In this document: piece after piece, positions 3,046-48,243 of the stretch
Numbering within the stretch: the stretch's first letter is position 1
How the letters are laid out: every line of letters begins with the position of its first letter
From: an uncultured Gammaproteobacteria bacterium
GTDB lineage: Bacteria > Patescibacteriota > Patescibacteriia > Magasanikbacterales > UBA922
Assembly: GCA_965231005.1 (NCBI GenBank)
Contig: OZ246405.1
Coordinates: 476,223 to 540,222, forward strand
DNA length: 64,000 nt
Direction of reading: 5' to 3'
Translations under genes and position numbers: made by a program
Notes under the pieces: generated by a model
The model's database searches: none
The model's input: only the letters and a program-made list of their open reading frames with translations
What the model was told of the DNA's origin: nothing

Positions 3046-4317
3046 ATGAAAAAGAAAATTCTTGATTTACATATTCATTCAAAATACTCTCGTGCCTGTT
3101 CAAAAAATTTAGAGCTCCCCTCTATTGCGAAAGCATGTGAAACGCGCGGGATTGATATTGTTGTTACGTCTGATTTTACACATCCGGCCTGGTTTTCTGA
3201 TATTAAAGAACAATTAGTAGAAGATACAGAAGGTGTATATAAACTAAAAGATGATTCTAGCAAAACTCGTTTTATTATTGGTACAGAGATTGCATCAATA
3301 AAAAAACATAAAGATAAGACACGACGTGTTCATCTTCTTGTGTTTGCACCGTCTATTGAAGTTGCAGAAAAATTTAATAATGCACTTGATGCCAGAGGAA
3401 TTAATCTAACTGCAGATGGAAGACCAATTATTGGGATGCCAAGTAAAGATATTTTGGAATTGATGTTAGAGATTGACGAGCGTATGGTTATGATTCCAGC
3501 ACATGCATGGACGCCGTGGTTTGGTGTATTTGGTTCAAAAGGTGGATATAATTCTATGGAAGAAGCATTTGATGATCTTGCACCACATATTTTTGCAATA
3601 GAAACTGGTTTATCGAGTGATCCACTTATGAATTGGCGATGTTCATGGCTAGATAATATTGCTCTTGTTTCAAATTCCGATGCGCATAGTACACCAAAAC
3701 TTGGTCGTGAAGCAAACGTACTCCAATTTGAAGATAATGAAGAGGTTACGTATACAGAAATAATGAGAATTATTCGGGATCAAGATAAACATAAATTTAT
3801 TGAAACATTAGAATTTTATCCTGAGGAAGGAAAGTACCACCATGATGGTCACAGGGCTTGTAATTTTTCTTGTGAACCAGAGGAAACAAAAAAAAGAGGG
3901 AACATGTGTCCTGTGTGTAAGAAGCCATTGGTTATTGGTGTGTTGAATCGTGTGCATGAATTAGCAGATAGAACAGAAGAACAAGCTCGTGCAGCTGCGC
4001 GCATTCCGTACAAAAGTATTTTTCCACTTCCAGAAGTTCTTGCAGATGTGTATCAAGTTGGACCAAATACCAAACGGGTAAAAACAGTATATGATGAACT
4101 TATTGAGAAACTTGGTTCAGAATTTCATATTTTACTAGATGCATCAATTAAAGATATAGAGAAAGCAAGCTCTGCACAAGTTGCTAGAGCAATTGATAGA
4201 ATGAGGAAAGGAGAAGTATTTTTGTCTGCAGGGTTTGATGGTGAATTTGGTGTTGTAAAAGTATTTGGAGAAGATGAAGATAGGGGATGGGGAAAGCAGA
4301 CAGAATTACTTATTTAA
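3046..4317 (+). CDS. PHP-family metal-dependent phosphoesterase with C-terminal Cys4 zinc-ribbon
   Basis: N-terminal LDLHIHSKYSRACS matches the PHP histidine motif. Internal CNFSC...CPVC cysteine pairs are present. Confidence 0.6.
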   Translation: MKKKILDLHIHSKYSRACSKNLELPSIAKACETRGIDIVVTSDFTHPAWFSDIKEQLVEDTEGVYKLKDDSSKTRFIIGTEIASIKKHKDKTRRVHLLVFAPSIEVAEKFNNALDARGINLTADGRPIIGMPSKDILELMLEIDERMVMIPAHAWTPWFGVFGSKGGYNSMEEAFDDLAPHIFAIETGLSSDPLMNWRCSWLDNIALVSNSDAHSTPKLGREANVLQFEDNEEVTYTEIMRIIRDQDKHKFIETLEFYPEEGKYHHDGHRACNFSCEPEETKKRGNMCPVCKKPLVIGVLNRVHELADRTEEQARAAARIPYKSIFPLPEVLADVYQVGPNTKRVKTVYDELIEKLGSEFHILLDASIKDIEKASSAQVARAIDRMRKGEVFLSAGFDGEFGVVKVFGEDEDRGWGKQTELLI

Positions 4318-4334
4318 AATTAATCTTAGTTCAA

Positions 4335-4372
4335 ACAAAAAACCACCCGCCAATTGGCAGGTGGGTTTTTTG
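4335..4372. terminator. Bidirectional rho-independent terminator
   Basis: Hairpin CCACCCGCC/GGCAGGTGG is flanked by an A-run on one side and a T-run on the other. It lies between convergent genes ending at 4317 (+) and 4383 (-). Coordinates approximate. Confidence 0.6.
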
Positions 4373-4382
4373 GTAGAAAAGT

Positions 4383-4958
4383 TTATCTTTTCTTACGTCT
4401 TTTAGTAGCTTTACGCTTTGCTGGCTTACGTTTCTTTGTAGCTTTACGTTTTGCAGGTTTACGCTTTTTAGCAGCTTTTCTCTTTTTAGGAGCAGCTTTC
4501 TTTTTGCGCTTTGCTGGCTTACGTTTTTTAGTAGCTTTACGTTTTGCAGGTTTACGCTTTTTCGCAGCTTTTCTCTTTTTAGGAGCAGCTTTCTTTTTGC
4601 GCTTTGCTGGCTTACGCTTTGCAACTTTACGTTTTGCAGGTTTACGCTTTTTAGCAGCTTTTCTCTTTTTAGGAGCAGCTTTCTTTTTGCGCTTTGCTGG
4701 TTTACGTTTCTTTGTAGCTTTACGTTTCGCTGGCTTACGTTTTTTAGTAGCTTTACGTTTTGCAGGTTTACGCTTTTTCGCAGCTTTTCTCTTTTTAGGA
4801 GCAGCTTTCTTTTTGCGCTTTGCTGGCTTACGCTTTGCAACTTTACGTTTTGCAGGTTTACGTTTCTTTGTAGCTTTGCGTTTCGCTGGTTTTCGTTTTG
4901 CAGCTTTTCTCTTTTTAGGAGCAGCTTTTTTACGAGTTGCGCGTTTTCGTGCTGGCAT
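4383..4958 (-). CDS. Lysine/alanine-rich histone H1-like (Hc1/AlgP-like) DNA-binding protein
   Basis: Product is MPARKRATRKKAAPKKRKAAKRKPAKRK... made of KRKPAKRKATKK-type repeats. A strong SD (GGAGGTG) sits 6 nt upstream of the ATG on the minus strand. The overlapping ORFs on other frames or strand are repeat artefacts. Confidence 0.7.
   Translation of the reverse strand: MPARKRATRKKAAPKKRKAAKRKPAKRKATKKRKPAKRKVAKRKPAKRKKKAAPKKRKAAKKRKPAKRKATKKRKPAKRKATKKRKPAKRKKKAAPKKRKAAKKRKPAKRKVAKRKPAKRKKKAAPKKRKAAKKRKPAKRKATKKRKPAKRKKKAAPKKRKAAKKRKPAKRKATKKRKPAKRKATKRRKKR
4390..4950. repeat. Tandem coding repeats (about 30-nt subunits, blocks of 90-126 nt) inside the histone-like gene
   Basis: The motif gcagcttttctctttttaggagcagctttctttttgcgctttgctgg recurs at about 4471, 4564, 4654, 4780 and 4900. 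Confidence 0.8.
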
Positions 4959-5230
4959 ATGTACACCTCCTCTCTTTTCGAGAGTATTATATATGTAACT
5001 TTGACATGACCATGGTACACACCAAATGGTATTACATACAAATTTTTTTTACATGACAAGCATTGATGTAAAAAAATTTAAAAAATAAAAAAATATTTTT
5101 CAATCGACCTTTTACAATAGTATAATTTGTTTTTTGTTTTTTTGATATAGTTTTGCGTTGAAAACTGTGTATAACTTTGCAAAAATAAAAAAAGGTTGTT
5201 TTACCTTTTTTTGTTTCTACAATTGTTTTT

Positions 5231-5875
5231 TTATTTTTTTATATCTTTTGCAAAACCTAGAATAAAAAACATCAAAATACTTCCAAAACAAATTCCTGCA
5301 AAATTAAAAAAGAAAAGAGTAAGACTACTCATTGCAAATGCCAGTTCTCCATTTGCTAATTGTAATCCACTAACTGCAAGCGGAGGTACAATGGCAACAG
5401 CGATTGCGATTCCTGTTAATGATTCAAGAACTTTTGGTCGTGCATAGCTATATGCGCCAGCAAGCCCACTAAACAGTGCCACTAAAAAATACAAAAGATT
5501 TGGATCTGTTCGAAGGAACATTTCAGTCGTGATTTTAATTGATTGTCCTTCAATAATTATTGCTATCGTTCCAAGAAGATAAGCAATTATTACTGTAAAG
5601 AAAGAACCAAGAATAACATGAAGTAATGCACGAAAGAATCTTTTTATCTCAAATGCTAAAAATGCAAGAGAAAAACTTATAATCGGAATAATAAGAGGTG
5701 CCAAAACCATGGCACCAATAATAATTGCTGTATTATCTAATAGTAATCCAAGTCCAGCGAGTGCTGCTGCAAGTCCTGTAAGCGTATAAAAGTTTGTTAC
5801 ATTATTTGTATGGTGTTCTAAACGTACTTGCGTTTTTTGTCTCATACGTGCAAATCGAGACAATGATATTCTCAT
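5231..5875 (-). CDS. Polytopic integral membrane protein (possibly DUF389-like)
   Basis: 214-aa product with at least 5 hydrophobic helices. Abuts the HD-domain gene on the same strand. Confidence 0.45.
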   Translation of the reverse strand: MRISLSRFARMRQKTQVRLEHHTNNVTNFYTLTGLAAALAGLGLLLDNTAIIIGAMVLAPLIIPIISFSLAFLAFEIKRFFRALLHVILGSFFTVIIAYLLGTIAIIIEGQSIKITTEMFLRTDPNLLYFLVALFSGLAGAYSYARPKVLESLTGIAIAVAIVPPLAVSGLQLANGELAFAMSSLTLFFFNFAGICFGSILMFFILGFAKDIKK

Positions 5876-5876
5876 A

Positions 5877-6590
5877 TTATGTTGTTAGAAGAAGATTATA
5901 AATGAGTGTTTCTCCGCGGGCTATATAATTATCAAGATCTTTTTTTGACAAAAAAGAACGGTGCCATTCGTAAATATCAATTTGCTTTATCCAAGCAATA
6001 AAGTTTTTCAAGATTTCAACAAGAAGTTGTTTTGCTTTTTTTGTTTTTAATTCAAATTGTTTTGTCATTAAAAACCACTTTACCATTATTTTATATCCAA
6101 TTTTATATAATGTTGATGACGCTGCAAGCTTTTGAATGTATTCGGTTCTGTCTACATGAAGAAGATCAAGTGCGTCTGCATCCTTTAAAATATCCAAAAG
6201 TATTCTGTTTTTCTTTCTTAAAAAGATTTTTGTTAATATTGTTCCTGTCCCCATACTTTTACAGAAAATAATTCTTGTTGCCATTCCAGCCACAGTGCCA
6301 AATAATCCATAACGAATTGTCCAATACCAAAGCATGAGTGCAGAAATAGTGTCATCGATCAGTGGCATAACAATAAAAGATGGTTTACGAGTAATTGTCC
6401 TGCCAACATCATGCCACCACGCAGAAAGCATAAGAGCCTCCCTTTGTTGTCTTGATAAATCATAACTATCAGCAATTGTCTTACAATGGCCAACGACCCG
6501 TTTTACATGGGCAAGATCATGAATAGGATCTTGGGAGCGAGACATCATTTTTTTAGCTAAAATAAGCAATTTTTTGACTTTATTTTGCAT
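5877..6590 (-). CDS. HD-domain phosphohydrolase
   Basis: H..H (HDLAHVKRV) and WWHDVGR motifs are typical of the HD superfamily. Confidence 0.7.
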   Translation of the reverse strand: MQNKVKKLLILAKKMMSRSQDPIHDLAHVKRVVGHCKTIADSYDLSRQQREALMLSAWWHDVGRTITRKPSFIVMPLIDDTISALMLWYWTIRYGLFGTVAGMATRIIFCKSMGTGTILTKIFLRKKNRILLDILKDADALDLLHVDRTEYIQKLAASSTLYKIGYKIMVKWFLMTKQFELKTKKAKQLLVEILKNFIAWIKQIDIYEWHRSFLSKKDLDNYIARGETLIYNLLLTT

Positions 6591-6876
6591 ATATGTTCAA
6601 ATAAACGTGTCTAGTATACCATGGCTGGTAGAAACACTCAATTATGGTATAGTAATAATGCCCAGTTGACCTATTGACAATATAGGAAAATATTGCTAAG
6701 ATTAGCTGTTCGTTCATTACAATGGATCAATCTCGGATCATTGTAGAGTGGCCTTGCTTAACTCATTTTTAGTGAATTGAGCAGGCCCACTCTCTTTCCT
6801 GAGTGGAATCCAAAACAAAGATGGGTAGATCTGGGTTCAGATTTGCCTACAGAACTCGAACACAAAGGGGGACATC

Positions 6877-9051
6877 ATGAAAAAGGGAAATACCTTCTGG
6901 GTATGTACACTCTTGTTGGCCGGCTGCCTGGATGGTGAGCTGGACAACGATGTGATCGGCAAGAAGCAGTGCTTGGACACGTTCCAGGCAGAAGCTCTTG
7001 TCCTGGTCGACTGCGAAGAAACTGTCACATCTTGGTGTGGTGACAATTCAGACAACGAGGATTGCAAGAAGTTCCTGTCGTCTTCGGATGCGGGCGCTGA
7101 TGCAAGCGATGCTGCTGAGGACACTGACACCAAGGTGAACAACGACAAGTGCCAGAAACACAGCGACTGTCCAACACCGAGCAACCCGTGCAAAAAAGCC
7201 GCGTGCGGCAAAGACGTGAAGTCCGGCAACATGGTCTGTACCGAGGTGGGGCCTGAAACTTGCGGCAGCGATGCCAATGGTGATGGAACTGCTGATGGAA
7301 AGGCTGAGGATGCCGATGTCACCGAAGATGTTGGTAGCGATGCAGATACTTCGGACTCTGGTAGCGATGCCAAGGACGCAGGTGACACAGAGGACGGCGG
7401 AGACGTTGCCGAAGTCAAAGACGCTGATGATGCAAGTGATGGAGGCGCTGTTGATGCTGCTGATGCTGCCACCGCAGACACGTCTATGTTCGATGCAGGT
7501 GGCCACGATACTGACGCTGGTTCGGACGACGATGGCGATGCAGCAGGAGATGTTGCTGAAGTCAAAGACGCTGATGATGCAAGTGATGGAGGCGCTGTTG
7601 ATGCTGCTGACGCTGCAACCACAGACACGTCCATGTTCGATGCAGATGGTCAAACGGATGCAGGTTCGCACGACGTTGACGCAGGTTCTGTTGACACCAG
7701 TGGTGACACAGCAGATTCTGGCGTAGACACCAAGGCTGACACAACCACGCCTGCGTGCTCGACAAAGGACTGCGACGACAAGAACCCATGTACGACTGAC
7801 TCCTGTGACAAGCTGAAGGGCTGTGTGAACTTGGCAAACACTGCCACGTGTTCGGACGCAAATCCGTGTACGGTTGGCGATGTGTGTGCTGACAAGGTCT
7901 GCAAGCCTGGCAAGCCGAATACCTGTGATGACAAACTCGCATGCACGGTTGATTCTTGTGACAAGCTGAAAGGATGTGTCCACAAGACAGACAACAGCAA
8001 GTGCGACGACGGGAAGAAATGTACCGACGATACGTGTGTTGTCACAACAGGTTGCATTCACAAGCAGAAATCCGGTTGTGCTCCGTGCACCAAGGCGACC
8101 CGAAAGAAGGACTGCGACGACGGAAATGGCTGTACAGCTGACCTCTGCGTTCAGAGCGCTTGCTACCACGAGTCACTGGACCAAAAGCCCTGTGACGATG
8201 GGAGTAAGTGTACGCAGAGTGATGTGTGTAAGGACAAGACCTGCGCCGCAGGAAAGCAACTCGACTGCAACGACAAGAACGCCTGCACGGACGACGTCTG
8301 TGACCCCAAGACCGGCTGTACGCACAAGAACAACACCAACAAGTGTGAGGACGGGAGCAAATGCACCCTTTCTGATGTCTGCAAGGATGGGAAGTGCGTG
8401 CCGGGCAAGAAGCTCGACTGCAACGACAAGAACGCCTGCACGGACGACGCCTGTAACGCCAAGGCCGGCTGCACACACAAGCAGGATGATAACAACACGT
8501 GTGATGACGGCAACAAGTGCACCAGTGATGCATGCGTTGCTGGCAAGTGCGTCAGCAAGCACATTGCCGGCTGCAAGTCGGTCTCGGTTACCCTTACGGT
8601 CGCTTTGAACACCAAGTTTCAGACGTACATGCAAAACAATCAGCAGGGGCCTTGCAACAAAGCCTTGCGCATCTTTATCGAGAAGTGCGAGGCCAAGAAC
8701 GTCTACGGCAACAAAGTGGTCATCATCCCATCCGGGTTTTATGGAGACTACGATAAAGACATCGTCAAGCTGAAGGAGATAGTGTACACACATCCTACAA
8801 AAGCCGAGGCATGGGTGAAGGGGTCTGCAGATTGTCGCATCAACATCTCGGGCTACCTATCGGAGGTCAAAGACGCACTCAAGGATTATAAGTGTTGGGC
8901 GACGGTGAATCCTCCGAAGGGTGTTAACGAGCTGAAGCCCATTCTCACGACTTCTGCCGGCTGCACGTACGAGTATTCCCTTGCAGACACCTGTCTTCCG
9001 AAGGAACTTGGTTCGCTCATCTGGTGCAACAAAAAGCCCATCTGCAAATGA
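6877..9051 (+). CDS. High-GC, Cys-rich secreted lipoprotein with acidic D/A/G-rich region and about 8 Dictyostelium-type CTDC-like Cys repeats
   Basis: Signal peptide with lipobox LLLAGC. Repeats of the form C-D-D-K-N-x-C-T-x-D-x-C-D-x-x-x-G-C-x-H-K alternate with C-x-D-G-x-K-C-T variants. G+C and codon usage differ strongly from the flanks. Confidence 0.75.
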   Translation: MKKGNTFWVCTLLLAGCLDGELDNDVIGKKQCLDTFQAEALVLVDCEETVTSWCGDNSDNEDCKKFLSSSDAGADASDAAEDTDTKVNNDKCQKHSDCPTPSNPCKKAACGKDVKSGNMVCTEVGPETCGSDANGDGTADGKAEDADVTEDVGSDADTSDSGSDAKDAGDTEDGGDVAEVKDADDASDGGAVDAADAATADTSMFDAGGHDTDAGSDDDGDAAGDVAEVKDADDASDGGAVDAADAATTDTSMFDADGQTDAGSHDVDAGSVDTSGDTADSGVDTKADTTTPACSTKDCDDKNPCTTDSCDKLKGCVNLANTATCSDANPCTVGDVCADKVCKPGKPNTCDDKLACTVDSCDKLKGCVHKTDNSKCDDGKKCTDDTCVVTTGCIHKQKSGCAPCTKATRKKDCDDGNGCTADLCVQSACYHESLDQKPCDDGSKCTQSDVCKDKTCAAGKQLDCNDKNACTDDVCDPKTGCTHKNNTNKCEDGSKCTLSDVCKDGKCVPGKKLDCNDKNACTDDACNAKAGCTHKQDDNNTCDDGNKCTSDACVAGKCVSKHIAGCKSVSVTLTVALNTKFQTYMQNNQQGPCNKALRIFIEKCEAKNVYGNKVVIIPSGFYGDYDKDIVKLKEIVYTHPTKAEAWVKGSADCRINISGYLSEVKDALKDYKCWATVNPPKGVNELKPILTTSAGCTYEYSLADTCLPKELGSLIWCNKKPICK
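7395..7650. repeat. About 115-bp near-identical direct tandem duplication inside the lipoprotein gene
   Basis: Two copies of gttgc[ct]gaagtcaaagacgctgatgatgcaagtgatggaggcgctgttgatgctgctga... differ at 6 positions. The differences are not restricted to adenines. Confidence 0.7.
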
Positions 9052-9062
9052 GTTCAACAAAC

Positions 9063-9165
9063 GATCACCACCCTCTCCTCGCGCATGGTGATCTGCTGTG
9101 GGAGGCTCCGAGCCCGCTCTCGGAGCCTCCCCGGCGCGCATCTCCGAATATTACCATATTCGGAG
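9063..9165. terminator. Cluster of three GC-rich hairpins directly after the island gene
   Basis: GATCACCA...TGGTGATC, then GGGAGGCTCCGAG-cccgct-CTCGGAGCCTCCC, then CTCCGAATAT-tacc-ATATTCGGAG. A T-rich tail follows. Coordinates approximate. Confidence 0.4.
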
Positions 9166-9346
9166 CTCCTCAATTTTCATTTTGTTTATAGAAGTGAAAT
9201 TTGTAAGAGCTTAGAGAAAATAGCTGAAAAAACAGGATTTATGAGTCTTGTTTTTTTCATCTTTATTTGCTATGCTACTGATGTTTTTATAGTGATTGAA
9301 GCACAACGCTTATTGTTCCGAGTGAGAAAAATGTAAATGGGCCTGT

Positions 9347-9419
9347 GGGCCTGTAGCTCAGTGGTTAGAGCACAACGCTTATAACGTTGGGGTCGATGGT
9401 TCAATTCCATCCAGGCCTA
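9347..9419 (+). tRNA. tRNA-Ile with anticodon UAU (gene TAT)
   Basis: Manual cloverleaf fold. Acceptor is GGGCCTG/CAGGCCT with a G1-U72 wobble. D-arm GCTC-AGTGGTTA-GAGC, anticodon stem CAACG/CGTTG with loop CTTATAA, T-arm GATGG-TTCAATT-CCATC. No CCA is encoded. Confidence 0.7.
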
Positions 9420-9464
9420 CAGGCAGATTTACATTGTTTTCGAACGACGGAACAACCTATCAGG

Positions 9465-9504
9465 ATAACGTTGGGGTCGATGGTTCAATTCCATCCAGGC
9501 CTAC
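9465..9504 (+). repeat. Exact 40-bp duplicate of the tRNA-Ile 3' half (att-like scar or tRNA pseudogene fragment)
   Basis: ataacgttggggtcgatggttcaattccatccaggcctac at 9381-9420 is repeated 44 bp downstream. A further 14-nt exact match to the anticodon-arm region (agcacaacgcttat) lies upstream at 9300-9313. Confidence 0.85.
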
Positions 9505-9524
9505 GAGCCGATTTGAATTTTTTT

Positions 9525-10496
9525 ATGACTGACACCATACATATTTCTGAAGAAAACGCAGGCAAGCGCCTGGATGTTTTTTTAGTAGAAGAGACTGGTT
9601 TGAGCAGATCTCAAGTTCAAAAGAGCATTAAAGAACAGTCTGTATTAGTTAATGATGCTCCAGCAAAAAAAACAGGGCAACTTCTACATGCTGGTGATAA
9701 TATTTCTTTTCTTAAAAAGGAAGATGGCCCAACTATTTCAGCCACAAAGGAGCCTGTGCTGCATCCTTCGGATCATCCAATACACATTATTCATGAATCA
9801 AATGATTTTCTTGTTGTAGAAAAACCTGCAGGACTTCTTGTCCATCCAACACAAGCAAGCGAAAAAGATACATTAGCAGGGAGACTGATTCATTTGTTTC
9901 CAGGATTGGCTGGAGTTGGAGATAGTCCTGTCCGTCCGGGGATTGTTCATCGTTTGGATAGAGATGCTTCTGGATTACTTGTTGTCGCAAAAACACAAAA
10001 AATGTTTGAGCACTTAAAAAGTCAATTTAAAGCACGGACAATAAAAAAAGAATATGTTGTTTTAGTGCATGGACTTGTTGAAAAAGAATATGGCTCAATT
10101 GATTTTACCATTGATAGAGGAAAAGAAGGACGTATGGTTGCTCGGCCAAAAGTAACTCTGAATTTAAAAAACGTTAATAAAATGCAGCCAGGAAAAGAAG
10201 CATTAACAGACTATTCTGTTGAAAAGAGATTTGTTCGTCATACGCTTTTGCGCGTAAGAATCCATACTGGTCGTATGCATCAAATTCGTGTACACATGTT
10301 TGCTTTTAATCATCCAGTAGTAGGTGATACACTATATATTAATAAGAAATTATCTAAAAAAAGTGATAGGCCTCTTCATAGGATGTTTTTGCATGCACAA
10401 ACATTGTGCTTCCAAGATCTTTCTGGAAAAGAAATGTGTTTTTCTTCTGAACTTCCACAAGAGCTTCAATCGTATTTAGATGAATTTGATACATAA
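9525..10496 (+). CDS. rluD: RluA-family 23S rRNA pseudouridine synthase (RluD-like) with N-terminal S4 domain
   Basis: Catalytic motif HRLDRDASGLLVVAK is present. I placed the start at ATG 9525, because the longer ORF from TTG 9387 would run through the tRNA. Confidence 0.8.
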   Translation: MTDTIHISEENAGKRLDVFLVEETGLSRSQVQKSIKEQSVLVNDAPAKKTGQLLHAGDNISFLKKEDGPTISATKEPVLHPSDHPIHIIHESNDFLVVEKPAGLLVHPTQASEKDTLAGRLIHLFPGLAGVGDSPVRPGIVHRLDRDASGLLVVAKTQKMFEHLKSQFKARTIKKEYVVLVHGLVEKEYGSIDFTIDRGKEGRMVARPKVTLNLKNVNKMQPGKEALTDYSVEKRFVRHTLLRVRIHTGRMHQIRVHMFAFNHPVVGDTLYINKKLSKKSDRPLHRMFLHAQTLCFQDLSGKEMCFSSELPQELQSYLDEFDT

Positions 10497-10498
10497 GT

Positions 10499-11068
10499 AT
10501 GAAAGCAAAAGGAAACATCATTATTATTTCAGGACCTTCTGGAGCAGGGGAAGATAGCATCATCAATGGACTTGAGAAATTGTTGCCGATTGAGCGTGTG
10601 ATAACCACCACCTCGAGAGAAAAACGTCCGGGAGAAACAGAAAAAGATCCATATTATTTTATTTCAAAAGAAGCATTTGAAAAGGGAATTAAAGATGGAG
10701 ATTTTTTTGAACATGCAAAACACTATAACGATCAATACTATGGTGTGACAACCAGTGAAATAGAACGGGTAAAACAGAGCGAGCATTTGGGGGTTTGGAA
10801 GATTGATTATAAGGGTGTTATCAAAGCAAAAGAACTTATGCCTGACATTCCTGCCATTTTTGTAAATGCTCCTCTTGAGATTCTTGAACAGCGTATTCGA
10901 GGGCGTAAAGATATCACAGAAGCATATGTTCAAGAACGGATGGCTTATACGAAAGAATGGTTACAACATTTAGATATGTATGATTATTCTGTAGTAAATG
11001 AACAAGGCAAATTGAATGAAACAATTGCTCAAATTAAGGCTATTATTGATAAGGAGTTTTCCTCTTGA
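10499..11068 (+). CDS. gmk: Guanylate kinase homolog with degenerate Walker A (GPSGAGED)
   Basis: TTTSREKRPGE...YYFISKEAFEKGIKDGDFFEHAKHYNDQYYGVT aligns with Gmk core motifs. The P-loop Lys and Ser/Thr are replaced by Glu-Asp. Confidence 0.65.
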   Translation: MKAKGNIIIISGPSGAGEDSIINGLEKLLPIERVITTTSREKRPGETEKDPYYFISKEAFEKGIKDGDFFEHAKHYNDQYYGVTTSEIERVKQSEHLGVWKIDYKGVIKAKELMPDIPAIFVNAPLEILEQRIRGRKDITEAYVQERMAYTKEWLQHLDMYDYSVVNEQGKLNETIAQIKAIIDKEFSS

Positions 11069-11151
11069 CAAAAAAGTGCCTTTCAGGTACACTGAGCCTA
11101 CTTTAAAACGTCCGATGTTGGGACCGCTCAACCTCTCGCTAAATATATACT

Positions 11152-11568
11152 ATGTCAGAAGATATTAGAAATTCTCTGAAGCCAGGCATGATTGTCAAGG
11201 TTCATCAGAAAATTAAAGAAAAAAATATTAAAGGAGAAGAAAAACAAAGAATTCAAGTATTCGAAGGTTCTGTACTTGCTGTAAAGCACGGTAGCGAACC
11301 TGGAGCAACAGTGACTGTTCGTAAAGTTTCAAATGGTGTTGGTGTAGAAAAGATTTTTCCAATTCATTCACCTGTTATCGATAAAATTGAATTGATTCGA
11401 GAAATGAAAGTGCGACAATCTCGCGCATATTACCTCCGAACACATAAGAAAAAATTGAAAGAGGTTCGAAAACCAAAAAAGGCTGCAAAGGCGAAAAAAG
11501 CTCCAACAGCTAAAAAGGCTGAACCAAAAAAAGAAGAAAAGAAAGTAGAAAAGGTTGAAGCAAAATAA
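11152..11568 (+). CDS. rplS: 50S ribosomal protein L19 with Lys-rich C-terminal tail
   Basis: FEGSVLAVKHGSEPGATVTVRKVSNGVGVEKIFPIHSPVIDKIEL matches the L19 core. Confidence 0.85.
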   Translation: MSEDIRNSLKPGMIVKVHQKIKEKNIKGEEKQRIQVFEGSVLAVKHGSEPGATVTVRKVSNGVGVEKIFPIHSPVIDKIELIREMKVRQSRAYYLRTHKKKLKEVRKPKKAAKAKKAPTAKKAEPKKEEKKVEKVEAK

Positions 11569-11582
11569 ATGTATAATAAGAA

Positions 11583-11603
11583 CCCCGGGATACCGGGGTT
11601 TTT
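11583..11603 (+). terminator. Rho-independent terminator after rplS
   Basis: CCCCGG-gata-CCGGGG followed by TTTTT. Confidence 0.7.
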
Positions 11604-11750
11604 AATTTGTAGGAATTTTAATTTTAAAAACATCCCGTGTTATCACAGGATGTTTTATGTAGTACTTCGACTTCCTAACTATCTGAACTATGTTTAGCGC
11701 AGATAGTCAGGTGAAGTCGAAGCATGGCAACTACTGCACACTGACTTGGC

Positions 11751-12212
11751 TTAAAAGAGATCAAGGTCACCGAGCTCAAGGATTCTGACTTTGTCTGGCC
11801 GTTCACGTACAAGGTAGGCATCGTAGCCGATGAAGCGTTGTTTGTCCTTCAGGAACAAGGTACGGAGCCACCAGACTTCGTCGTCTATTTGGATCGACCC
11901 GTTTGAATTAACCTTGATTGTCACGCCTTGCTTTGCTGCATTGGTCAGTGAGAAGCGAGGGCCATTTTGGCAGACAATTCCTCCGATTGGATCGCTCGGC
12001 TGAGCAGGATTGCCTTTGGCATCAACGTAGGTGAGATTGGTAGGACAGGAGAAGGCTCTGCTTGGCTCAACTCGGATGATTGGGTTCTGGTACTTACCCG
12101 GTTCAACTCGATAGTAGTGCTCGGTTCCGTCTGCTCCGATCAAGACGATTTTGTAATCGCCAGCCTCTGGGTCAACGGTTAGTCTCCATTGACCAAATTC
12201 GAAGTGTTGCAT
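11751..12212 (-). CDS. Hypothetical protein (153 aa) in a higher-GC islet
   Basis: ORF with SD AAGGGGGT upstream of the MQHFEF start. No recognisable motifs. Confidence 0.5.
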   Translation of the reverse strand: MQHFEFGQWRLTVDPEAGDYKIVLIGADGTEHYYRVEPGKYQNPIIRVEPSRAFSCPTNLTYVDAKGNPAQPSDPIGGIVCQNGPRFSLTNAAKQGVTIKVNSNGSIQIDDEVWWLRTLFLKDKQRFIGYDAYLVRERPDKVRILELGDLDLF

Positions 12213-12362
12213 GGTACCCCCTTTGCTGTGCATTTTTTTATATCATGTTTAAAACAAATGGTCAATGACAAGGATTTCAATATAGTTGTACCATTGACAG
12301 ATTTTCATTTTTGTGATAGGTTAAATCGTCGGCAATACTGCCGCTTTTACATGGAGGCTGCA

Positions 12363-12881
12363 ATGCTCAGCTCTTTGAAAAAAGGAACACTGCGGTTTCT
12401 GTTCCAAGAACTATGCAAAAAAGCTGGTATGCTTCGCAAGTGGATGCCTGCTAACGATGAAACAGCACACATCGTCCGCAAAGTGACTTTGACGTGGGCA
12501 GGAACTCGAGCAGGACAAATTCGTCCAAGCATGCGACATATCGAAATCGAAGCATCCAAACCGTTTACGGTATTGGTTGGGTTCGATCTTTCCATACCTC
12601 TGGTACTGAGCAACGGCTACGATCCATATGGCCAACTTTCTTCAGTCCGCTGTCCTGATGGAATCCACCGTGTTGTTTTCGCAACGTTTGTGGGCAGAGG
12701 ACCAAAGACGTTTGAGCTTCTGGTTCGGTTTGATGTCGATTTGTTCGACCTTGAGGTTGAGGATCTACGAACGCTTTCTTTTGAATACAAAGTAGATGCC
12801 AGATTCGACTTGAGTAACAGTCGAGAACCGCAGGCTGCCTACGAGCCACACAGTTGGCAGAAGTTTGGCTTTTTCAGCTGA
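12363..12881 (+). CDS. Hypothetical protein (173 aa) in a higher-GC islet, divergent from the previous gene
   Basis: GGAGG lies 5 nt upstream of ATG 12363. No recognisable motifs. Confidence 0.5.
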   Translation: MLSSLKKGTLRFLFQELCKKAGMLRKWMPANDETAHIVRKVTLTWAGTRAGQIRPSMRHIEIEASKPFTVLVGFDLSIPLVLSNGYDPYGQLSSVRCPDGIHRVVFATFVGRGPKTFELLVRFDVDLFDLEVEDLRTLSFEYKVDARFDLSNSREPQAAYEPHSWQKFGFFS

Positions 12882-12898
12882 GCACTACACAACAAACG

Positions 12899-12942
12899 GC
12901 CCCAGTACTGAGCGCAGTACTGGGGCCGGAGGATGATTTTTG
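12899..12942. terminator. Strong hairpin (13-bp perfect stem) plus T-run; probable bidirectional terminator between the islet and uvrA
   Basis: GGCCCCAGTACTG-agcg-CAGTACTGGGGCC followed by ...GATTTTTG. Confidence 0.55.
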
Positions 12943-12959
12943 AGCAATATGCTCTTTTT

Positions 12960-18264: not shown

Positions 18265-18939
18265 TTACGACGCACGCTTGTTCAAGAGTCTGTCCATGTC
18301 GTGGATTGCCTTTTTGAATGAGACAATGTCTGCTTCACTGATGTCGTCGCCAATGTCAGCTTCTCGCACTACTTGGCGCATGATCCGGAGGACTTCCTGT
18401 GGAGGATTCTGCAGAGCAGACTCAGCACCGAGCTTCTTTCTCAGACTCTCTTGGATGAAGTAGCAAAGGAGATATGTTGAAATACCTCTCATGTTCAAGT
18501 CACTGGAACTTGCGAACATGAGATATTCCAACATCTGCATGGCCTTTTTCAGGTCTTCGACGCTTTTCCAGGTTTTGTATGCCGACCAGTACAGCTTGCC
18601 AAGTTCCATGACAGCGATCTTATCGGCCCTCAGCACCTCATGTTCCAGTGGGTTCGGCGCTGCAAGCACCTGTACATCAATGGAATTCAGTGCCTCCCGG
18701 ATTTTTGCCTTTTGTGCAGCTTTTTCGACTTTGCTTCCTTTTGCTTCTGCGTTCCGTAGCGCTCTGTTAGCCTTTTCAACAATCCTGAATACGTCCTGGA
18801 TCGATTTGATTGTCAGATCGGTGAAAGGGAACAGAAAGACAGTGGCATCGTTGCCATCTCTCAAGTCAGGCTGGGTTGTGCCGCTCACAGGCGGGAGCGG
18901 AATCACATTGCCGCCCTTCCCAGATGTACACTTACTCAT
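18265..18939 (-). CDS. Hypothetical protein (225 aa), higher-GC gene
   Basis: SD GAGGAGGTG upstream of the MSKCTSG start. A hairpin terminator TTCGCAGTAGT...CTACTGCGAA lies just downstream at about 18218-18246. Confidence 0.5.
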   Translation of the reverse strand: MSKCTSGKGGNVIPLPPVSGTTQPDLRDGNDATVFLFPFTDLTIKSIQDVFRIVEKANRALRNAEAKGSKVEKAAQKAKIREALNSIDVQVLAAPNPLEHEVLRADKIAVMELGKLYWSAYKTWKSVEDLKKAMQMLEYLMFASSSDLNMRGISTYLLCYFIQESLRKKLGAESALQNPPQEVLRIMRQVVREADIGDDISEADIVSFKKAIHDMDRLLNKRAS

Positions 18940-19019
18940 GTGCACCTCCTCGTCCATATTTTTTTGGGACCCTCTATATAACCATATTTTTTGATATACG
19001 TCAAGTCCCCAAGGAAGAT

Positions 19020-19048
19020 TTGACATATATATAGGAAAGTCATACAAT
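19020..19048 (+). promoter_or_regulatory. Sigma70-like promoter (TTGACA-17-TACAAT) for the gene at 19098
   Basis: Hexamers read directly from the sequence. This is a divergent promoter region. Confidence 0.35.
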
Positions 19049-21773: not shown

Positions 21774-24700
21774 ATGACGCGACTCGTCCGAACATACAAG
21801 TTTTTAGGTATTTTAGCATTCCTATGTTTTGCATTGGTGTGGTATTTTACTATTGGTTATGGACAACTTTTTGCACCAAAAGCAAAAGGAGTTGTGAAGC
21901 AATGGGCAACAGGTGCAAATGGAAACTGGAATGTTGCTGCAAACTGGGAACCATCTGGAATTCCTACAGCAACCGACGATGTTGATTTAACAACAACAAC
22001 TGGAAGTTATGTTATTACTATCCCAGACGGATATACAGCAGAGTTTGCAAGTTTTAATGCAAATTCAGGCCAAGGACTCAATGTTCGTTTAATAATGTCA
22101 GGAGATATTAGTACAAATGGTAACGTGACATTTGGTTCAAGCTCAACGTTTACGCTTGCCACATCTTCTCCTATTTCAATTGGTGGAAATTTAACAGTTG
22201 AAAGTGGTGGTGATATTCAAACAGATGGAACGGTTACAAATATTGTTCATTTGACTGCAGCAAATATTGATATTCAAGCTGGTGGTGAAGTCGATGTTGA
22301 TGGTCTTGGACATGCAGGTGGAACCTTTACAAATAATGGAGATGGCCCAGGGGGAGGAATATATGGTTCAGAAGATGCCGGTTCTGGTGGTGGGCATGGT
22401 GGTCTTGGTGGAAAGGATGCAACAGCAGCTTCTCCGGGTGGAGGAGGATATTGTGATATTACTGCACCAACGACAGCTGGTTCTGGTGGTGGTGGAGGAG
22501 GAAATCAAACTGGTGGTTCTGGAGGAGGAATTATTCAGCTTGTGACTGCGGGCTCGTTAACTATTGATGGAACCATAACTTCAAATGGAGATAATGGTGG
22601 GACAGAATCAAGCAGAGATGCTGGTGGTGGGGCTGGTGGAAGTGTTTTCCTTCTTGCATCAACAACAGTTGGTACTGCTGGTACTGTACGAGCAAATGGA
22701 GGAAATAGTGGAAATGGAAATGATTCTGGAGGTGGTGGAGCTGGCGGATGTGTTAAATTGCAATTTAATACCAATTCTTTTCCTATAACAAGTATCCAGG
22801 CTTACGGTGGAACAGGAAATCAGTATGGTGGTGCTGGACAAATTTATATTAAAAATGATGTTTTGTCAGACGATGATCTTTATATTATTAATGATGGAAA
22901 TAATGGGACAACACCTGCAGATACGCAGCAGATTGCTGCCTCTTTGACAATGGATTCTCTAACACTTGCGAGTTCTTCAGTCTATGCTGTGACAAGTACA
23001 AATGCTTTGACACTTAATGATGCCGATCCACTTACTGGAGGAAATACGTCTGGAACGTTACGTATTGATAATACTGCAACGTTCACTCCTCCAGCGGCAT
23101 TTACTCTTTCAAACGCTACATTAGAATTTACAGAAGGAGCAACTTGGACTGCCTCTTCGACTTCAGATCTTACGATTGGGTCAAATGGAACATTGGATTT
23201 GCGTAACTTTACAACAACGACTGGTTTGACATTAGATGATTTTACTATCAATTCTGGCGGAACAGGAACACATGGGGCAAATACAACTGCACAAACGCAT
23301 GTATTTCATATATCGGCAACAACAACAAATATTCTAGCAGGTGGAACTATTGATGTAGACGGAAAAGGATATACAGGTGGTTCCACAACAAACGATGGTA
23401 ATGGACCTGGTCCAGGACAGTTTGGTCCAATAGAATCAGGTTCTGGAGGTGGACATGCGGGTGCTGGAGGTTCAAATGAACAAAATACTGCTGGTGGTAG
23501 TGCATATTGTGTTACAAATAATCCTGGAACAATTGGTTCTGGTGGAGGTGGTGGTGGAAATGTATCTGGTGGAGCTGGTGGTGGACTTATCAAGCTTGAT
23601 ATGTCCTCTACGCTTGTTGTTGCTGGAACACTTACTGCAGATGGTGCTGTTGGTGGAGATGAAGCTGGTCGAGATGGTGGAGGAGGGGGTGGAGGGGCCG
23701 TCTATCTTTCTGGAACAATGCTAACACTTAATGGATCAACCATTACGTTAGATGGTGGAAATGCTGCAAATGGAGATAATTCTGGTGGTGGAGGTGGTGG
23801 TGGATGTTTTTATGCTTTGTATGACACATATTCAGACGATACTGCAACAACAAGTACGGCTGCAGGTACTGGGCAGACCTCTGCTGGCTCTGTTGCTGTT
23901 GCTGGGACATGGACTTTGGCAGTAAACAATAATGCTCCATCAGTGACTGCATTTACTGCTTTGGCAATAACAGATGGTACAGGCTTGGTCAGGATTTCAA
24001 CCACAACAGTTAGTGATGCAGATGATGATGCTGTTACGCTTATCGTTGATTATTCTATTGATAATGGCACAACCTGGGCATCATCATCAATTAGAGAAGC
24101 GTCTGCAGATGCAGGTGGAACTCCAGCAACCTCTACTGGTTCAATTGGTCCAATTAGTATTGCCACTTCAAATAACGTAAGTTTTGAGTGGCATTCGAGG
24201 AATGATAGTGTTGTTACAAGTACAGAGGTTTGGATAAGAATAAGTCCAAATGATGGAACAGAGTATGGGACAGCCGTAACAAGCACACTTGCGTTTGAAG
24301 TGGACAATGAGGATCCGACTGTTCCAGAAAATCTTACTATATTTAATACATCGACAACGAGCGTCATATTTGGTTTAGGAACAACATCAACCGATAGCAA
24401 TTTTCTTGAATATAAAATATTTTATAAACAAGGTGCATCTGGTGTTACAGAATCTGATACTGCATACACGTCTACGACAGATGCTAATTTTGGTGATTCT
24501 AATTTTAACTCAGCAGTTGTGTCCACTAGTATTGGAGGCTTGTCTGTAAATACACAGTATGTTGCTGCGCTGTATGCGTATGACAGTTTTGGAAATAGCA
24601 CGTCAACTGCAGGAGAAATTTCATTTTACACATTAGCAAGTGCGCATGGCACACCAACTGTTGCAACTCCTGGAATAACAGACATGCAAATTAATTTTGT

Positions 24701-27700
24701 TGATACATTAAATAGTACAACGACAGAACTTTCTATTTATAACATCACTGATGCACAATATGTCAATGCATTTGGTCTATCATCTGCTACACCAGTTTGG
24801 CAGACAACTTCTACATGGGATTTAAATTTTGAAATAAGCGGTCTTAGCACAAGTACTCCATATCAATTTGAAATAGTTGCAAGAAATGGAGACGGCATTC
24901 CCACAGTAAGCTCATCTGCAAGTCTGCCGCTATATACGCTTGCTGAAACTCCTGGGACTCCTACAATTGGTTCTGTAGCAACGACAACAATGCCGATTAC
25001 CATTGCACCGAAAGGGAATTCTACATCAACAGAGTACGCAATTTATAATACATCAGATGATAATTTCTTATCAGCAACTGGGGCATCTACAGCAAGTCCT
25101 GTTTATCAAACAACATCTACATGGGGGACATCATTTGCTGCAATAGGATTGAACACAAGTACACCATATACATTTGAAGTACTGGCAAGAAATGGTGATC
25201 AAGTTCTCACTGCAAGTTCTACAGTGAGTGCAGGAACATATACATTGGCAGAGGCAGCTGGTGCTGCAACAATAAGTTCTCCTACGCTCACTACACTTCA
25301 GATTGCATTAGATGACGTGGGGAATTCAACATCTACTTCTTATGCGGTTTATAGTTTAACTGACTCGGCCTATGTTGGTGCAAACGGTGTTTCAAGCACA
25401 ACAGCTGTATTTATGACAACGTCAACATGGGCAACTGTTTCTTCAACAAGTTTGACTGCAAATACATCATATTCGTATGAGGTTGTTGCCCGAAATGGTG
25501 ACTCAGTTGATGCTCCATCGTCAACAGCAAGTACTGGTGTGTTTACACTAGCAAATGTCCCATCTCTTGGTTCAGTTTCAAGTAATGGAGATCAAATTAC
25601 AGTGTCTTTCTCTGGTGATGCAACACAGTATTCTGTTGAAAGTACAAGTGGTGGACTAAGTTCAGGATGGATTAGTGGCTCATCATATGATTTCACAAGT
25701 TTAGATTGTGGCCAGACATATACATTTAGAATTAAAGGACAAAATGGTGATGCAGTAGAAACAGGTTATTCAGGAACTGACACTGGAGAAACAGCAGGTT
25801 GTGGTGGAGGTGCTGCAGCTGCTGCTACAGTTACAAAAACAGTAAAAAAGACAGTTGAAAAAGTAGAAAAAGTTAAAGAAGAAGTGAAAGAAAAAGTTGT
25901 CGAAGTAAAGAAAAAGGTTACTGATGTCGTGAAAAAAATATTTTCAAAGAATAAAACATCAGCCCCAGCTACAGGGAATACTGCAGGTGCAGGAGGAGCG
26001 AGTGGTGGCGCTTCTGGTGGAGGATCAGCAGGTGGTAGTTCAGGAGGTCAAGCAAGTGCACCACCAACAATAGATGCTGCTGTTTCTTTGGCAAAAGAAG
26101 GTCGTGTTGTTGAAGCAACAAATAGTCGACAAGTAGACATTGTTCTTGAAACAGGATTTTCAAAAGTGACATTGCTTGATGATGCAGGAAATATTTTAGA
26201 AAATATTGATATCAACCCAATTATTCCTTGGCAGCTTGCTGCAGGTGATGGAGAAAAATGTGTGACAGCAGTATTTTATGATGCGCTTGGCAATGAAGCA
26301 GGAAGAAAAGTAACATGTGTAAATTTAGATACAACACCACCTCGAGCACCATTCATTCAAAATGCTCAGACAAAGATTGCACTGACAGATATTTCAACGG
26401 GGCGTCTGGTCACTGTAAGAGGTACGAGCGAACCAAATATTGGTATTCTTATTTCTGCAGTACGCACAGGTGACATTTCAGAAAGTGATTTATCTGTGAA
26501 CATAAATCCTTTCCACATATATACAGTACATGCTGCTGGCACACAGACATTTAGAACCCAGTCCGATGACAAAGGTTTTTGGTCATTTACATTCCCAGAA
26601 TCGTTTGACGTTGGAAAATATTCCATTTCTGTTCAAGCAGAAGATAAGGCAGGAAATGTTTCTGAACCTGCGACTGCACAAATTTCTGTCTTACCAAAAA
26701 ATATTGCAAAAGTTATAAAAGCGGTTATTGATAATCCAGAAGTTGAACGTATTAATGAAACAATTGTTGCACCTGCTGTTATTGCAGTTGGTGGTGCAAA
26801 TGTCGTGGCAACTGGTTTCCAATTACCACAAGTATTCATGTTCTTAAAATATTTGTTCTTGCAACCAGTTCTCTTGTTTAGAAGAAGAAAACACAAAGGA
26901 TGGGGAACAGTATACGATGGATTTACAAAAAAACCTGTTGACTTAGCAAGTGTTCGGTTTGTTGATGCAAAAACAGGTGCTATCCGACGTTCACAAGTAA
27001 CAGATGTCCAAGGAAGATACTTCCTTATGGCTGACCCAGGATCGTATAAGATAGAAGTAGATAAGCATGGATTTGGTGGTATTAGTAAGCATTTAGAAGG
27101 GATTGAAACAGATGGAGATTATGCACGTGTGTATCATGGCGAAGAATTGACAATCAGTGAAGGTCAAACAGAAATTAATTATAGTGTGCCAATTGATCCA
27201 GAAGGAAAAGAAGTACCAGCTCCAAAATTAATTCGTAAGAGTATTGTTCGTGCAGTGCAACATATTATAAGTATTGTTGGTATGGGATCAACATTCTTAT
27301 CATTTGTTATTTCTCCAACGCCAACAATTGGTGGTTTCCTTGTTCTCCATGTTGGATTTTATGCATTGTCACATAGATTTTCAAAGAGCAAATTGCCAGA
27401 CTCATTTGGTGTTGTATATGATGATAAAAAGGAAGCGCTCCGTAGAGTTGTTATTCGGGTATTTGATTCTGCCTACAATAAATTAGTCGATACACAACTT
27501 ACTGATGCAAAAGGAAGATACGCATTGCTTGTTGGTCCAAGTAAGTATTATGTGACCTATGAAAAACCTGGATATGAAAAGAAACAAACAAAAGAAATGG
27601 ACTTTTCAAAAGAGCATGGCGGTATGATTACAACAGACGAACGTCTTAGAAGAAGTGGGAAACCAATGTCCAAGAAGGAAAAAGAGGCATTTGAAAAAGA

Positions 27701-47633: not shown

Positions 47634-47664
47634 GAGTGTGAAAGTTGCCTTGTGGCAGGTGGAA

Positions 47665-48243
47665 CTACTCGTAGATGTGAGAGGTCTCGGTCAGGAGTTC
47701 GCCGTCGGCGCTGTATCGCTGCTGGTAGAGCAGACCGTCGTCCTTCTTCTCGATGCAGGCGTCTTCGTTGATCTCGTCGATGTGCAGACAGGCTTTGGAC
47801 TCAGCATGGTCAGGATCGACTTCGATGGTCATCTTGTTGAAGAGCAGGTGTTTGCCCACGAGGTTGACGTAGCACTTGCCGTTTTCGACTTTGCAGCTGA
47901 TCTCGCCCTTACCGAGCTTGGAGCCCTTGCGGCGGAACTTGCCGTCCATGGCCAGGATCGCATCCGAGCAGGTGACCATCGGGTCCGTGACCTCAATGGC
48001 CTCGCACACGCCGTCGGACTGACGACAGGTCTTGCCCATGGGGCAGCCCACGGTCTCATCGCGGCAGTCGGTCGTCTTGGTCGTGTCGGGCTTCGTGGTG
48101 TCGTCGGGGGTCGTCTTGGTCAGATCGGTCTTGGCGACATCGGTCGAAGTCGGGTTGGTGTTGCTGGACTCATCGGCGCTGCAGCCGAACGTGAACGTCG
48201 CGACCACCAGGGCCGCAACGAGAGAGGTCATGACCTTGTACAT
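47665..48243 (-). CDS. High-GC small secreted lipoprotein, Thr/Asp/Lys-rich linker plus Cys-containing domain
   Basis: SD GAAGGAGA upstream of MYKVMTSLVAALVVATFTFGC. Start placed at the internal Met, as the upstream extension lacks an RBS. G+C by eye is in the high 50s %. Confidence 0.6.
   Translation of the reverse strand: MYKVMTSLVAALVVATFTFGCSADESSNTNPTSTDVAKTDLTKTTPDDTTKPDTTKTTDCRDETVGCPMGKTCRQSDGVCEAIEVTDPMVTCSDAILAMDGKFRRKGSKLGKGEISCKVENGKCYVNLVGKHLLFNKMTIEVDPDHAESKACLHIDEINEDACIEKKDDGLLYQQRYSADGELLTETSHIYE

Follow-up and report, generated by a model that had tools for sequence, protein, structure and literature searches.

Between the genes rplS and uvrA of an uncultured member of the Magasanikbacterales (Patescibacteriota) lies a small islet of raised G+C content that carries two divergent open reading frames (ORFs), here called ORF A and ORF B. 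The DNA analyzed, the window, is a stretch of 64,000 nucleotides (contig OZ246405.1 of assembly GCA_965231005.1, positions 476,223 to 540,222), and positions are counted from its first letter; the flanking rplS and uvrA were assigned via homology and synteny. The islet (11660-12930) has a G+C content of 47.5%, as against approximately 36% for its flanks, 38.6% for the whole window, 35% for rplS and 37% for uvrA, and an earlier note on this DNA had estimated about 50% by eye. ORF A (11751-12212, minus strand) specifies 153 amino acids followed by a stop codon and has a Shine-Dalgarno (SD) sequence, AAGGGGG, 5 nt 5′ of its ATG, while ORF B (12363-12881, plus strand) has GGAGG, also at proper spacing, 5′ of its ATG. 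The earlier note had described just such a pair of small divergent ORFs, each with an SD sequence; its 153 amino acids for ORF A are right, and its 173 for ORF B are 172 amino acids and the stop codon. A spacer of 150 bp separates the two. By part, the G+C content is 50.0% in ORF A, 47.6% in ORF B and 36.7% in the spacer, and the G+C content of third codon positions (GC3) is 0.54 for ORF A and 0.46 for ORF B compared to 0.15-0.27 for the backbone genes of the window.

The gene order rluD-gmk-rplS, convergent with uvrA-p490-DsbA, is kept in Magasanikbacteria and beyond; the closest rplS match is 84% identical, and the matching records carry the names Magasanikbacteria or Patescibacteria. In several relatives (L021, L027, L028, L043 and L047) rplS and uvrA are separated by 31-64 bp, no more than a single bidirectional terminator, and in five more the spacer is 112-218 bp, with short palindromic inserts in some. 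Because the junction in relatives is often just such a short spacer with a single terminator, the islet is best seen as an insertion at a variable site. Other relatives have quite different cargo there. The closest one, L009, has an insert of 1.3 kb with a major facilitator superfamily transporter of backbone composition, in L032 the insert is 1.5 kb long and has two genes without identification, and L016 (Magasanikiibacteriota) has 5.1 kb (its positions 6363-11512) encoding a NERD nuclease, an AbiEii toxin, a C5-methylase fusion and two further unidentified ORFs. Only one further copy of the islet was found, in L007/L008; it comes from the same strain, with one single-nucleotide polymorphism in 1.4 kb. 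The comparison of this junction in related genomes that the earlier note had proposed therefore bears out its claim of an insertion between rplS and uvrA: the islet is absent from the orthologous site, at which short spacers, of 31-218 bp in eight relatives, or, in three others, unrelated cargo are found. The junction is a variable-cargo hot spot in Magasanikbacteria and the islet is one of the insertions in it.

An accessory islet in a hot spot between core genes is of a known kind. As with other variable-cargo hot spots and defense islands, a convergent core pair, rplS and uvrA, frames unrelated cargo, and the composition of the islet is atypical. In contrast to them, the islet has no integrase or recombinase, its flanking repeat is a weak one of 13 nt, and it has no match to a defense model. 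That repeat is an imperfect direct one, with its left copy, AGGATGTTTTATG (11647-11659, plus strand), and its right copy, AGGATGATTTTTG (12930-12942, plus strand), each abutting an edge of the islet. The copies agree at 11 of 13 bases, a level equaled in 30 of 2000 shuffles of two 61-nt boundary windows; L009 has AGGATGTTTTTTTG at the corresponding uvrA-side position of the right copy, and the islet repeats resemble the terminator halves around the L009 insert. The match at the islet edges is only suggestive. Among the sequences at this junction elsewhere, the L016 fusion protein is unusual in having LexA DNA-binding and S24 peptidase domains joined to the C5 cytosine methylase, and short palindromes resembling miniature inverted-repeat transposable elements, for instance TGTCATTCCCGCCACAGCGGGAATC...GATTCCCGCTGTGGCGGGAATGACA, are present in the rplS-uvrA spacers of L024, L025, L015 and L013.

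The ends of the islet are rich in RNA structure, and the stability of each hairpin was expressed as its folding energy with a z-score against shuffles. The rplS gene has its own intrinsic terminator, AACCCCGG-GATA-CCGGGGTT followed by TTTTT (11581-11600, plus strand; -20 kcal/mol, z -3.8), whose reverse-strand reading is also terminator-like in a scan. It is followed by a hairpin absent from the earlier note’s list, AAAACATCCCGTG TTAT CACAGGATGTTTT (11627-11656; -14.1 kcal/mol, z -5.0), lying between an A-run and a T-run, that is terminator-like in both directions and escaped a simple terminator scan because of an internal mismatch in its stem. On the minus strand TTTTTAAAATT comes after it, and transcription of ORF A probably stops there; the hairpin seems to be a homologue of the terminator on the rplS side of the L009 junction, which reads AAAAACACCCCTCACGGGGTGTTTTATGT. 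Before it on that strand, in the 3′ untranslated region (UTR) of ORF A and beginning 27 nt past the stop codon, is the nested 60-nt stem-loop (11664-11723; -36.1 kcal/mol on the minus strand, z -8.7, and -29.2 kcal/mol on the plus strand). No T-run follows this stem-loop, which is therefore no terminator, and it may instead shield the 3′ end of the mRNA. At the other edge is a perfect hairpin (12897-12928; -30.6 / -29.0 kcal/mol and z -6.6 / -6.9 on the two strands). Both structures had been noticed before, the second with a stem of 13 bp that is actually of 14 bp, and no shuffle matched the folding of either. After the perfect hairpin on the minus strand comes TTTGTTGTGT, and it is terminator-like there in the scan; it reads as the uvrA terminator that also closes ORF B, 16 nt past its stop codon. 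A small hairpin with seven T residues, GAGCAATATGCTC (12942-12954, or to 12961 with the T-run, plus strand), is a candidate terminator for plus-strand read-through from ORF B.

The 150-bp spacer had been proposed as a shared divergent promoter region, and indeed two putative promoters are back-to-back within it. That of ORF A (12237-12265, minus strand) is the near-consensus pair TTGACC, 17 nt, TATAAA, followed by a leader of approximately 20 nt with the SD sequence; its hexamers were read directly in the sequence, and the pair is not in the list from a promoter scan. An alternative ATG upstream (12233) is just 3 nt past the -10 hexamer, and for this reason the start giving 153 amino acids is favored. 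The putative ORF B promoter (12294-12322, plus strand) is TTGACA, 17 nt and a weak -10, TAGGTT. Promoter-like sites in the spacer region number 7 compared to a mean of 2.0 in shuffles. The leader of ORF B also has a small hairpin, CGGCAATACTGCCG followed by CTTTTAC (12330-12343, plus strand), just 5′ of its GGAGG, that is terminator-like in the scan. The hairpins of the islet are unique within the window, and their matches to Rfam are all sub-threshold. A reading of them as repeated elements or known RNAs was accordingly set aside. The bracketing hairpins mark the ends of transcripts, not those of a mobile element.

A first search with the ORF A protein gave 18 matches, namely one 99%-identical copy that belongs to this very strain, and 17 homologues with 46-60% identity over 82-100% of the length, and a profile run against 1.84 billion representatives yielded 137 clusters (50% identity clusters, E ≤ 1e-3). 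All members whose source is named are from Patescibacteria, being assigned to Magasanikbacteria, Uhrbacteria, Gracilibacteria or ‘Patescibacteria group’. The family alignment (A1) has 22 invariant columns, all of which are kept in the window ORF A; the ratio of nonsynonymous to synonymous substitution (dN/dS) is about 0.2 and purifying selection acts on the family. Of the structure predictions that the earlier note had suggested for both proteins, that for ORF A is confident: the AlphaFold2 model is all-beta with a mean predicted local distance difference test (pLDDT) score of 93.3 and a predicted template modeling (pTM) score of 0.84. It has no significant counterpart in the PDB (E of at least 0.24 with Foldseek) or in BFVD (E of at least 0.2), and the family profile has no significant match among PDB sequences, the best, with E 0.013, being to an NHL blade. 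Neither did any Pfam, PADLOC or NCBIfam family match ORF A at E ≤ 1, save a non-significant DUF4399, nor did any PHROGs family, and a Pfam scan of 104 members of the family found nothing significant. The earlier note had recognized no motif in either protein. The nearest matches, DUF4399 and the NHL repeat of Brat (PDB 4zlr), are antiparallel beta-meanders like the ORF A model, as are the Rhs/teneurin YD shell, OspA and MORN proteins. No signal peptide or membrane segment is evident on inspection of the window ORF A sequence. ORF A thus belongs to an unnamed all-beta family confined to Patescibacteria. No Pfam model, solved relative or paper was found for this family, which in that respect is new, and the literature searched likewise had nothing on GC3-rich genes in Patescibacteria.

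Relatives of ORF A include some that are extended at the N-terminus by low-complexity or amphipathic sequence, are tandemly duplicated, or have tails with AA at the end. The AA C-termini, present in P0027, P0037, P0042, P0060, P0108, P0114, P0127, and in both the L081 A protein and its 87-aa neighbor, are reminiscent of ssrA-like C-terminal degradation tags. The C-terminal ELGDLDLF is invariant in close homologues and ends the Magasanikbacteria members. A C-terminal QL[SD]LF is a beta-clamp-binding motif, and a clamp-binding tail was considered for ORF A and set aside: ELGDLDLF is internal or variable in the wider family and corresponds to a strand and a short helix of the predicted fold. A phage or plasmid origin of the islet genes was also dropped, as no relatives of either ORF were found in IMG/VR viral contigs, GenBank phages, PLSDB plasmids or PHROGs.

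The commonest setting of A genes is a cluster in which genes for FtsW and then a deoxythymidine diphosphate (dTDP)-sugar epimerase, FdtA or RmlD precede A, which is followed by PGI, three or four genes for family-2 glycosyltransferases (GT2) and one for a sugar-nucleotidyltransferase. This is seen in L001, L002/3, L074, L075/76 and L077, and similarity of the flanks indicates the same for L069, L070 and L073. There A is co-oriented with the genes of the cluster, yet is served by a promoter and a terminator of its own. L081 and L082/83 (Uhrbacteria), distant members with 23-24% identity to the window protein, are also among dTDP-sugar genes, with no PGI gene, and GT2 genes are again present near A in L082/83. 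In a second subfamily the gene has a histidine kinase/response regulator pair on one side and U32-RuvA-FemAB-Mur ligase genes on the other. The window ORF A is outside the usual context, with no dTDP-sugar/PGI/GT2 cluster in the window, and relocated copies are found in L004 and L079 too.

The A genes have a common design at the transcript level. On reading the sequences, the homologues have near-consensus promoters, and their 3′ UTRs, 100-150 nt long, contain two to four strong hairpins and then a canonical terminator. In nine GC3-rich copies the hairpin z-score of the 3′ UTR is between -4.1 and -10.7, and in L002 it is -2.4. The helices are partly conserved with some compensatory changes, both among L001, L074 and L077 and between L004 and L079. 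L004 and L079/L080 share a block of 730 bp comprising leader, ORF and 3′ UTR at 84% identity, and the likeness continues more weakly through the promoter, whereas the flanks have no detectable DNA similarity; on this basis the A cassette sometimes relocates as a unit. In L080 (45-2344), taken with L079 with which it shares an identical overlap of 972 bp, the cassette is beside genes for a large serine recombinase and a rolling-circle Rep (REP_ORF2-G2P), and so seems to border on an integrated mobile element, the genes of which are themselves of backbone GC3. The cassettes of L004 (5850-6000) and L080 (3940-4094) have a conserved 5′ UTR of approximately 150 nt with a hairpin, GCCCGAC...TTCGGGC, directly 5′ of GGAGG, and the window ORF A is without this leader. 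The window gene otherwise fits the plan of the cassette, with its own promoter (TTGACC-17-TATAAA), the 60-nt hairpin and then a terminator hairpin, and is a further relocated copy.

A monocistronic gene that has a strong promoter and, past its stop codon but ahead of its terminator, very stable hairpins brings to mind the 3′ stem-loops that stabilize mRNAs, such as the repetitive extragenic palindromic (REP) elements after malE of E. coli or the 3′ retroregulator of cry1Aa in Bacillus thuringiensis. Unlike those, the A hairpin is not repeated and its sequence varies among lineages.

The most distinctive property of the A genes is their codon usage. In ten AT-rich loci (L001, L002, L004, L069, L070, L072, L073, L074, L077 and L079) their GC3 is 0.70-0.94, compared to 0.25-0.45 for neighboring genes, and besides these the distant L081 and L083 genes have 0.80-0.90. 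In pooled counts TTC accounts for 95% of Phe codons in A genes and 11% in flanking genes, ATC for 85% and 14% of Ile codons, AAG for 91% and 21% of Lys codons, and CAG for 92% and 39% of Gln codons; A is at 5% of third positions in A genes and 30% in flanking genes. Syntenic copies of A differ by dS values (synonymous divergence) of 0.8-2.4, with the flanking genes saturated, and hence the bias is long-lasting. High GC3 and a hairpin-rich 3′ UTR are accordingly traits of the A family, and they largely explain the raised G+C content of the islet and its long hairpin.

The earlier note had spoken of foreign DNA, and while the islet does appear to be inserted, high G+C content as a sign of foreignness is weakened for ORF A by its being a member of a GC3-rich family. 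It might still be that high G+C content is a mere mark of recent transfer from a GC-richer donor, that nothing maintains it and that the whole A family is GC-rich through frequent transfer. The cassette does move, in L079/L080 to a place beside recombinase and Rep genes, and the window copy is itself at a new site; moreover the GC-rich relative L075 (57% GC) has A at a genome-typical GC3 of 0.71 and so without bias, and in one pair (L001/L074) the dS of A is below that of flanking genes, 0.82 compared to 1.70, which more recent shared ancestry could explain. However, within the shared dTDP-sugar/PGI/GT2 context the nucleotide identity of A (72-75%) tracks that of the flanks (72-82%), as under vertical descent, and yet GC3 is 0.70-0.88. 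An explanation by recent, unameliorated arrival fits poorly with this and with the saturation of synonymous sites. In addition, the bias persists in the distant members that are also among dTDP-sugar genes, there is no GC-rich donor lineage among the 137 clusters, and GC3 in AT-rich genomes is up to 0.94, which is above that in L075. Recent transfer as the source of the high G+C content is thus unlikely, if still to be reckoned with. The A genes are like ‘alien’ genes undergoing amelioration in that their GC3 is far off the genome norm, and unlike them in that the deviation lasts in syntenic orthologues with saturated synonymous sites and looks maintained. If so, the selected or driven property would be GC content itself and not a specific fold.

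The anomaly may extend beyond A to a class of small genes. In L081 a 227-aa gene (4239-4922, GC3 0.70) and an 87-aa gene (5578-5841, GC3 0.81), both without a Pfam match, flank A, and L004 has a 57-aa ORF (4034-4207), also without a Pfam match, with a GC3 of 0.84.

ORF B is a different matter. Among 5.8 billion protein clusters it matches only itself (P0019), it has no homologue in the viral and plasmid collections named above, in PDB sequences or in the loci fetched for comparison, and no Pfam, PADLOC, PHROGs or NCBIfam family matches it. Its single-sequence AlphaFold2 model, with a pLDDT of 38, is too poor for a structure search, and so the structure prediction proposed earlier is of no use for this protein. 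The idea that ORF B is divergent kin of A or of the neighbors of A was discarded: the hhalign probability is 2%, and blastp and tblastn found nothing. With no homologue, so low a pLDDT, a known occurrence in one strain only and a weak -10 hexamer, ORF B could be what is left of a decaying gene, or a frame that is open by chance in GC-richer DNA from elsewhere, in which case the islet would effectively be A only; dN/dS is uninformative, as the sole other copy (L007/L008) is of the same strain. On the other side, its stop-free run of 230 codons is longer than that in all 2000 dinucleotide shuffles, the order of its G+C content by codon position (GC1 > GC3 > GC2; 0.56, 0.46 and 0.41) resembles that of coding sequence, the canonical GGAGG is at the right distance from its ATG, and it has its own TTGACA and terminator hairpins. 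Because of the long frame together with the SD sequence, the -35 hexamer and the terminators, ORF B is considered a probable gene, a putatively coding orphan restricted to its lineage, and its being non-functional is improbable.

What of the two ORFs as a pair? A toxin-antitoxin system, a defense pair, or a regulator with its effector was what the earlier note had in mind, and it could be imagined that A and B form one such functional module, acquired together and under shared divergent control. They do share an atypical composition, the codon choice of each being slightly closer to the other than to the backbone, their promoters are back-to-back within 150 bp, and L016 has genuine defense-type genes, AbiEii, NERD and the methylase, at the same junction; beside the islet in the window there is no defense gene. 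But the defense-model search that had been called for (PADLOC-DB v2) gave zero families for both proteins, and none of the other family collections has a match for either. The absence of B homologues means that the pair is known from one strain only, and A stands alone in all other genomes examined, with no B-like neighbor in any of the approximately 20 distinct A homologue loci that were read. A and B are divergent and not co-transcribed, and B has no DNA-binding signature and no reliable predicted structure. In being two small adjacent genes of approximately 150-170 aa in accessory DNA they are like type II toxin-antitoxin genes, from which they differ in their divergent orientation, the lack of an operon and of a toxin or antitoxin domain, and the lack of conservation of the pair. 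A functional module of A and B is very improbable, and the pair proposal is weakened by the recurrence of A without B.

The explanation that on balance accounts best for the whole, and is probably right, is that a small accessory segment, the islet, was inserted at a hot spot and comprises two independent transcription units, one of them a relocated A cassette. It would have been inserted into the terminator region between convergent rplS and uvrA, where Magasanikbacteria take up variable cargo. The first unit would be a self-contained cassette of near-consensus promoter, SD sequence, GC3-enriched ORF A, long 3′ UTR hairpin and terminator, a cassette that is usually inside a cluster for dTDP-sugar synthesis and family-2 glycosyltransferases, occasionally moves elsewhere as a unit and appears to retain C/G-ending codons despite the AT-rich genomes around it. 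The second would be the orphan ORF B, with its own promoter, ending at the 14-bp hairpin that presumably also terminates uvrA. This structural and evolutionary part can be held with considerable confidence. The functional part is tentative and rather doubtful: a strong promoter and SD sequence, a GC-rich ORF and protective 3′ hairpins may give a stable, well-expressed mRNA, and the ORF A protein may work with the machinery for cell-envelope glycan synthesis.

Several points weigh against this explanation or parts of it. No recombinase or integrase is encoded in the islet, and neither an integrase nor a clear target duplication accounts for its arrival. The bias of the window ORF A is the weakest of the family (GC3 0.54 compared to approximately 0.21 for its neighbors), and its leader is short. 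The A members associated with the histidine kinase/response regulator pair and FemAB/Mur genes are without raised GC3, the bias being absent from L084 and L085. Genes for ribosomal proteins do not have the preference for C/G-ending codons (GC3 of 0.22 for rplS in the window and, in L004, 0.46 for S12 and 0.43 for S7), and therefore the A bias is not ordinary translational selection. Against their own synonymous permutations the coding mRNAs of A give z-scores of +0.3 to -2.2 and are at most marginally more structured. The idea of a stable and abundant A mRNA is drawn from sequence features, the link of A with cell-envelope glycan synthesis is one of gene position, and ORF B may not be translated.

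A bolder proposal is that selection maintains in the A family a codon ‘dialect’ that is the reverse of the one used by its AT-rich genomes and that, together with the structured UTRs, would give its mRNA a special fate. Such an mRNA might be unusually long-lived or nuclease-resistant, or be translated well only under a certain supply of tRNAs or nucleotides, as might arise in a cell feeding on GC-rich host RNA. This is a long shot. Patescibacteria codon usage has been described in a 2026 preprint as complementary to that of hosts (doi 10.64898/2026.06.21.733656), and a link between that and the dialect of A is speculation.

Elsewhere in the window other genes also have a GC3 of 0.45-0.62 (6877-9051, plus strand; 18265-19047, minus strand; 47638-48423 / 47665-48339; 48688-49686, plus strand; 4331-5059), and its genome is a mosaic that includes GC3-rich genes. 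One of these encodes a Cys-rich protein of 724 aa (GC 0.54) with Dicty_CTDC repeats, and others are two ORFs that lack a Pfam match and one for a weak RHS-repeat protein; the frame 47638-48423 appears to be antisense to a real gene. A gene for tRNA-Ile with the anticodon TAT (9347-9420, plus strand) is 3′ of the GC-rich 724-aa gene and 5′ of rluD. This anticodon is uncommon in bacteria, in which AUA is usually read by a lysidine-modified CAU tRNA. The C-terminus of the rplS product (11436-11568, plus strand) is a Lys/Ala-rich extension made of imperfect 18-nt repeats, giving 138 aa compared to 110 aa in the closest relative, L009. Three giant ORFs (21774-27866, 38248-47403 and 50282-55288, plus strand; 2030, 3051 and 1668 aa) have backbone codon usage.

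With the toxin-antitoxin or defense label removed, the composition and hairpins of the islet can be explained as ordinary parts of transcription units at an insertion hot spot. What comes to light instead is an undescribed family confined to Patescibacteria, under purifying selection, with a confident all-beta model and usually located in envelope glycan clusters, and the persistent inverted codon usage of this family appears to be new. Should the ‘dialect’ proposal be true, it would mean a gene-specific codon-usage switch in episymbiotic bacteria, tied to an envelope-acting protein whose fold is undescribed. If the bias is truly maintained, the A family would offer, among organisms in which translational selection is regarded as weak, a clear natural example of selection, or of a biased process, that is specific to one gene and acts on synonymous sites, and GC-rich islets in genomes of the Candidate Phyla Radiation need not be recent foreign DNA.

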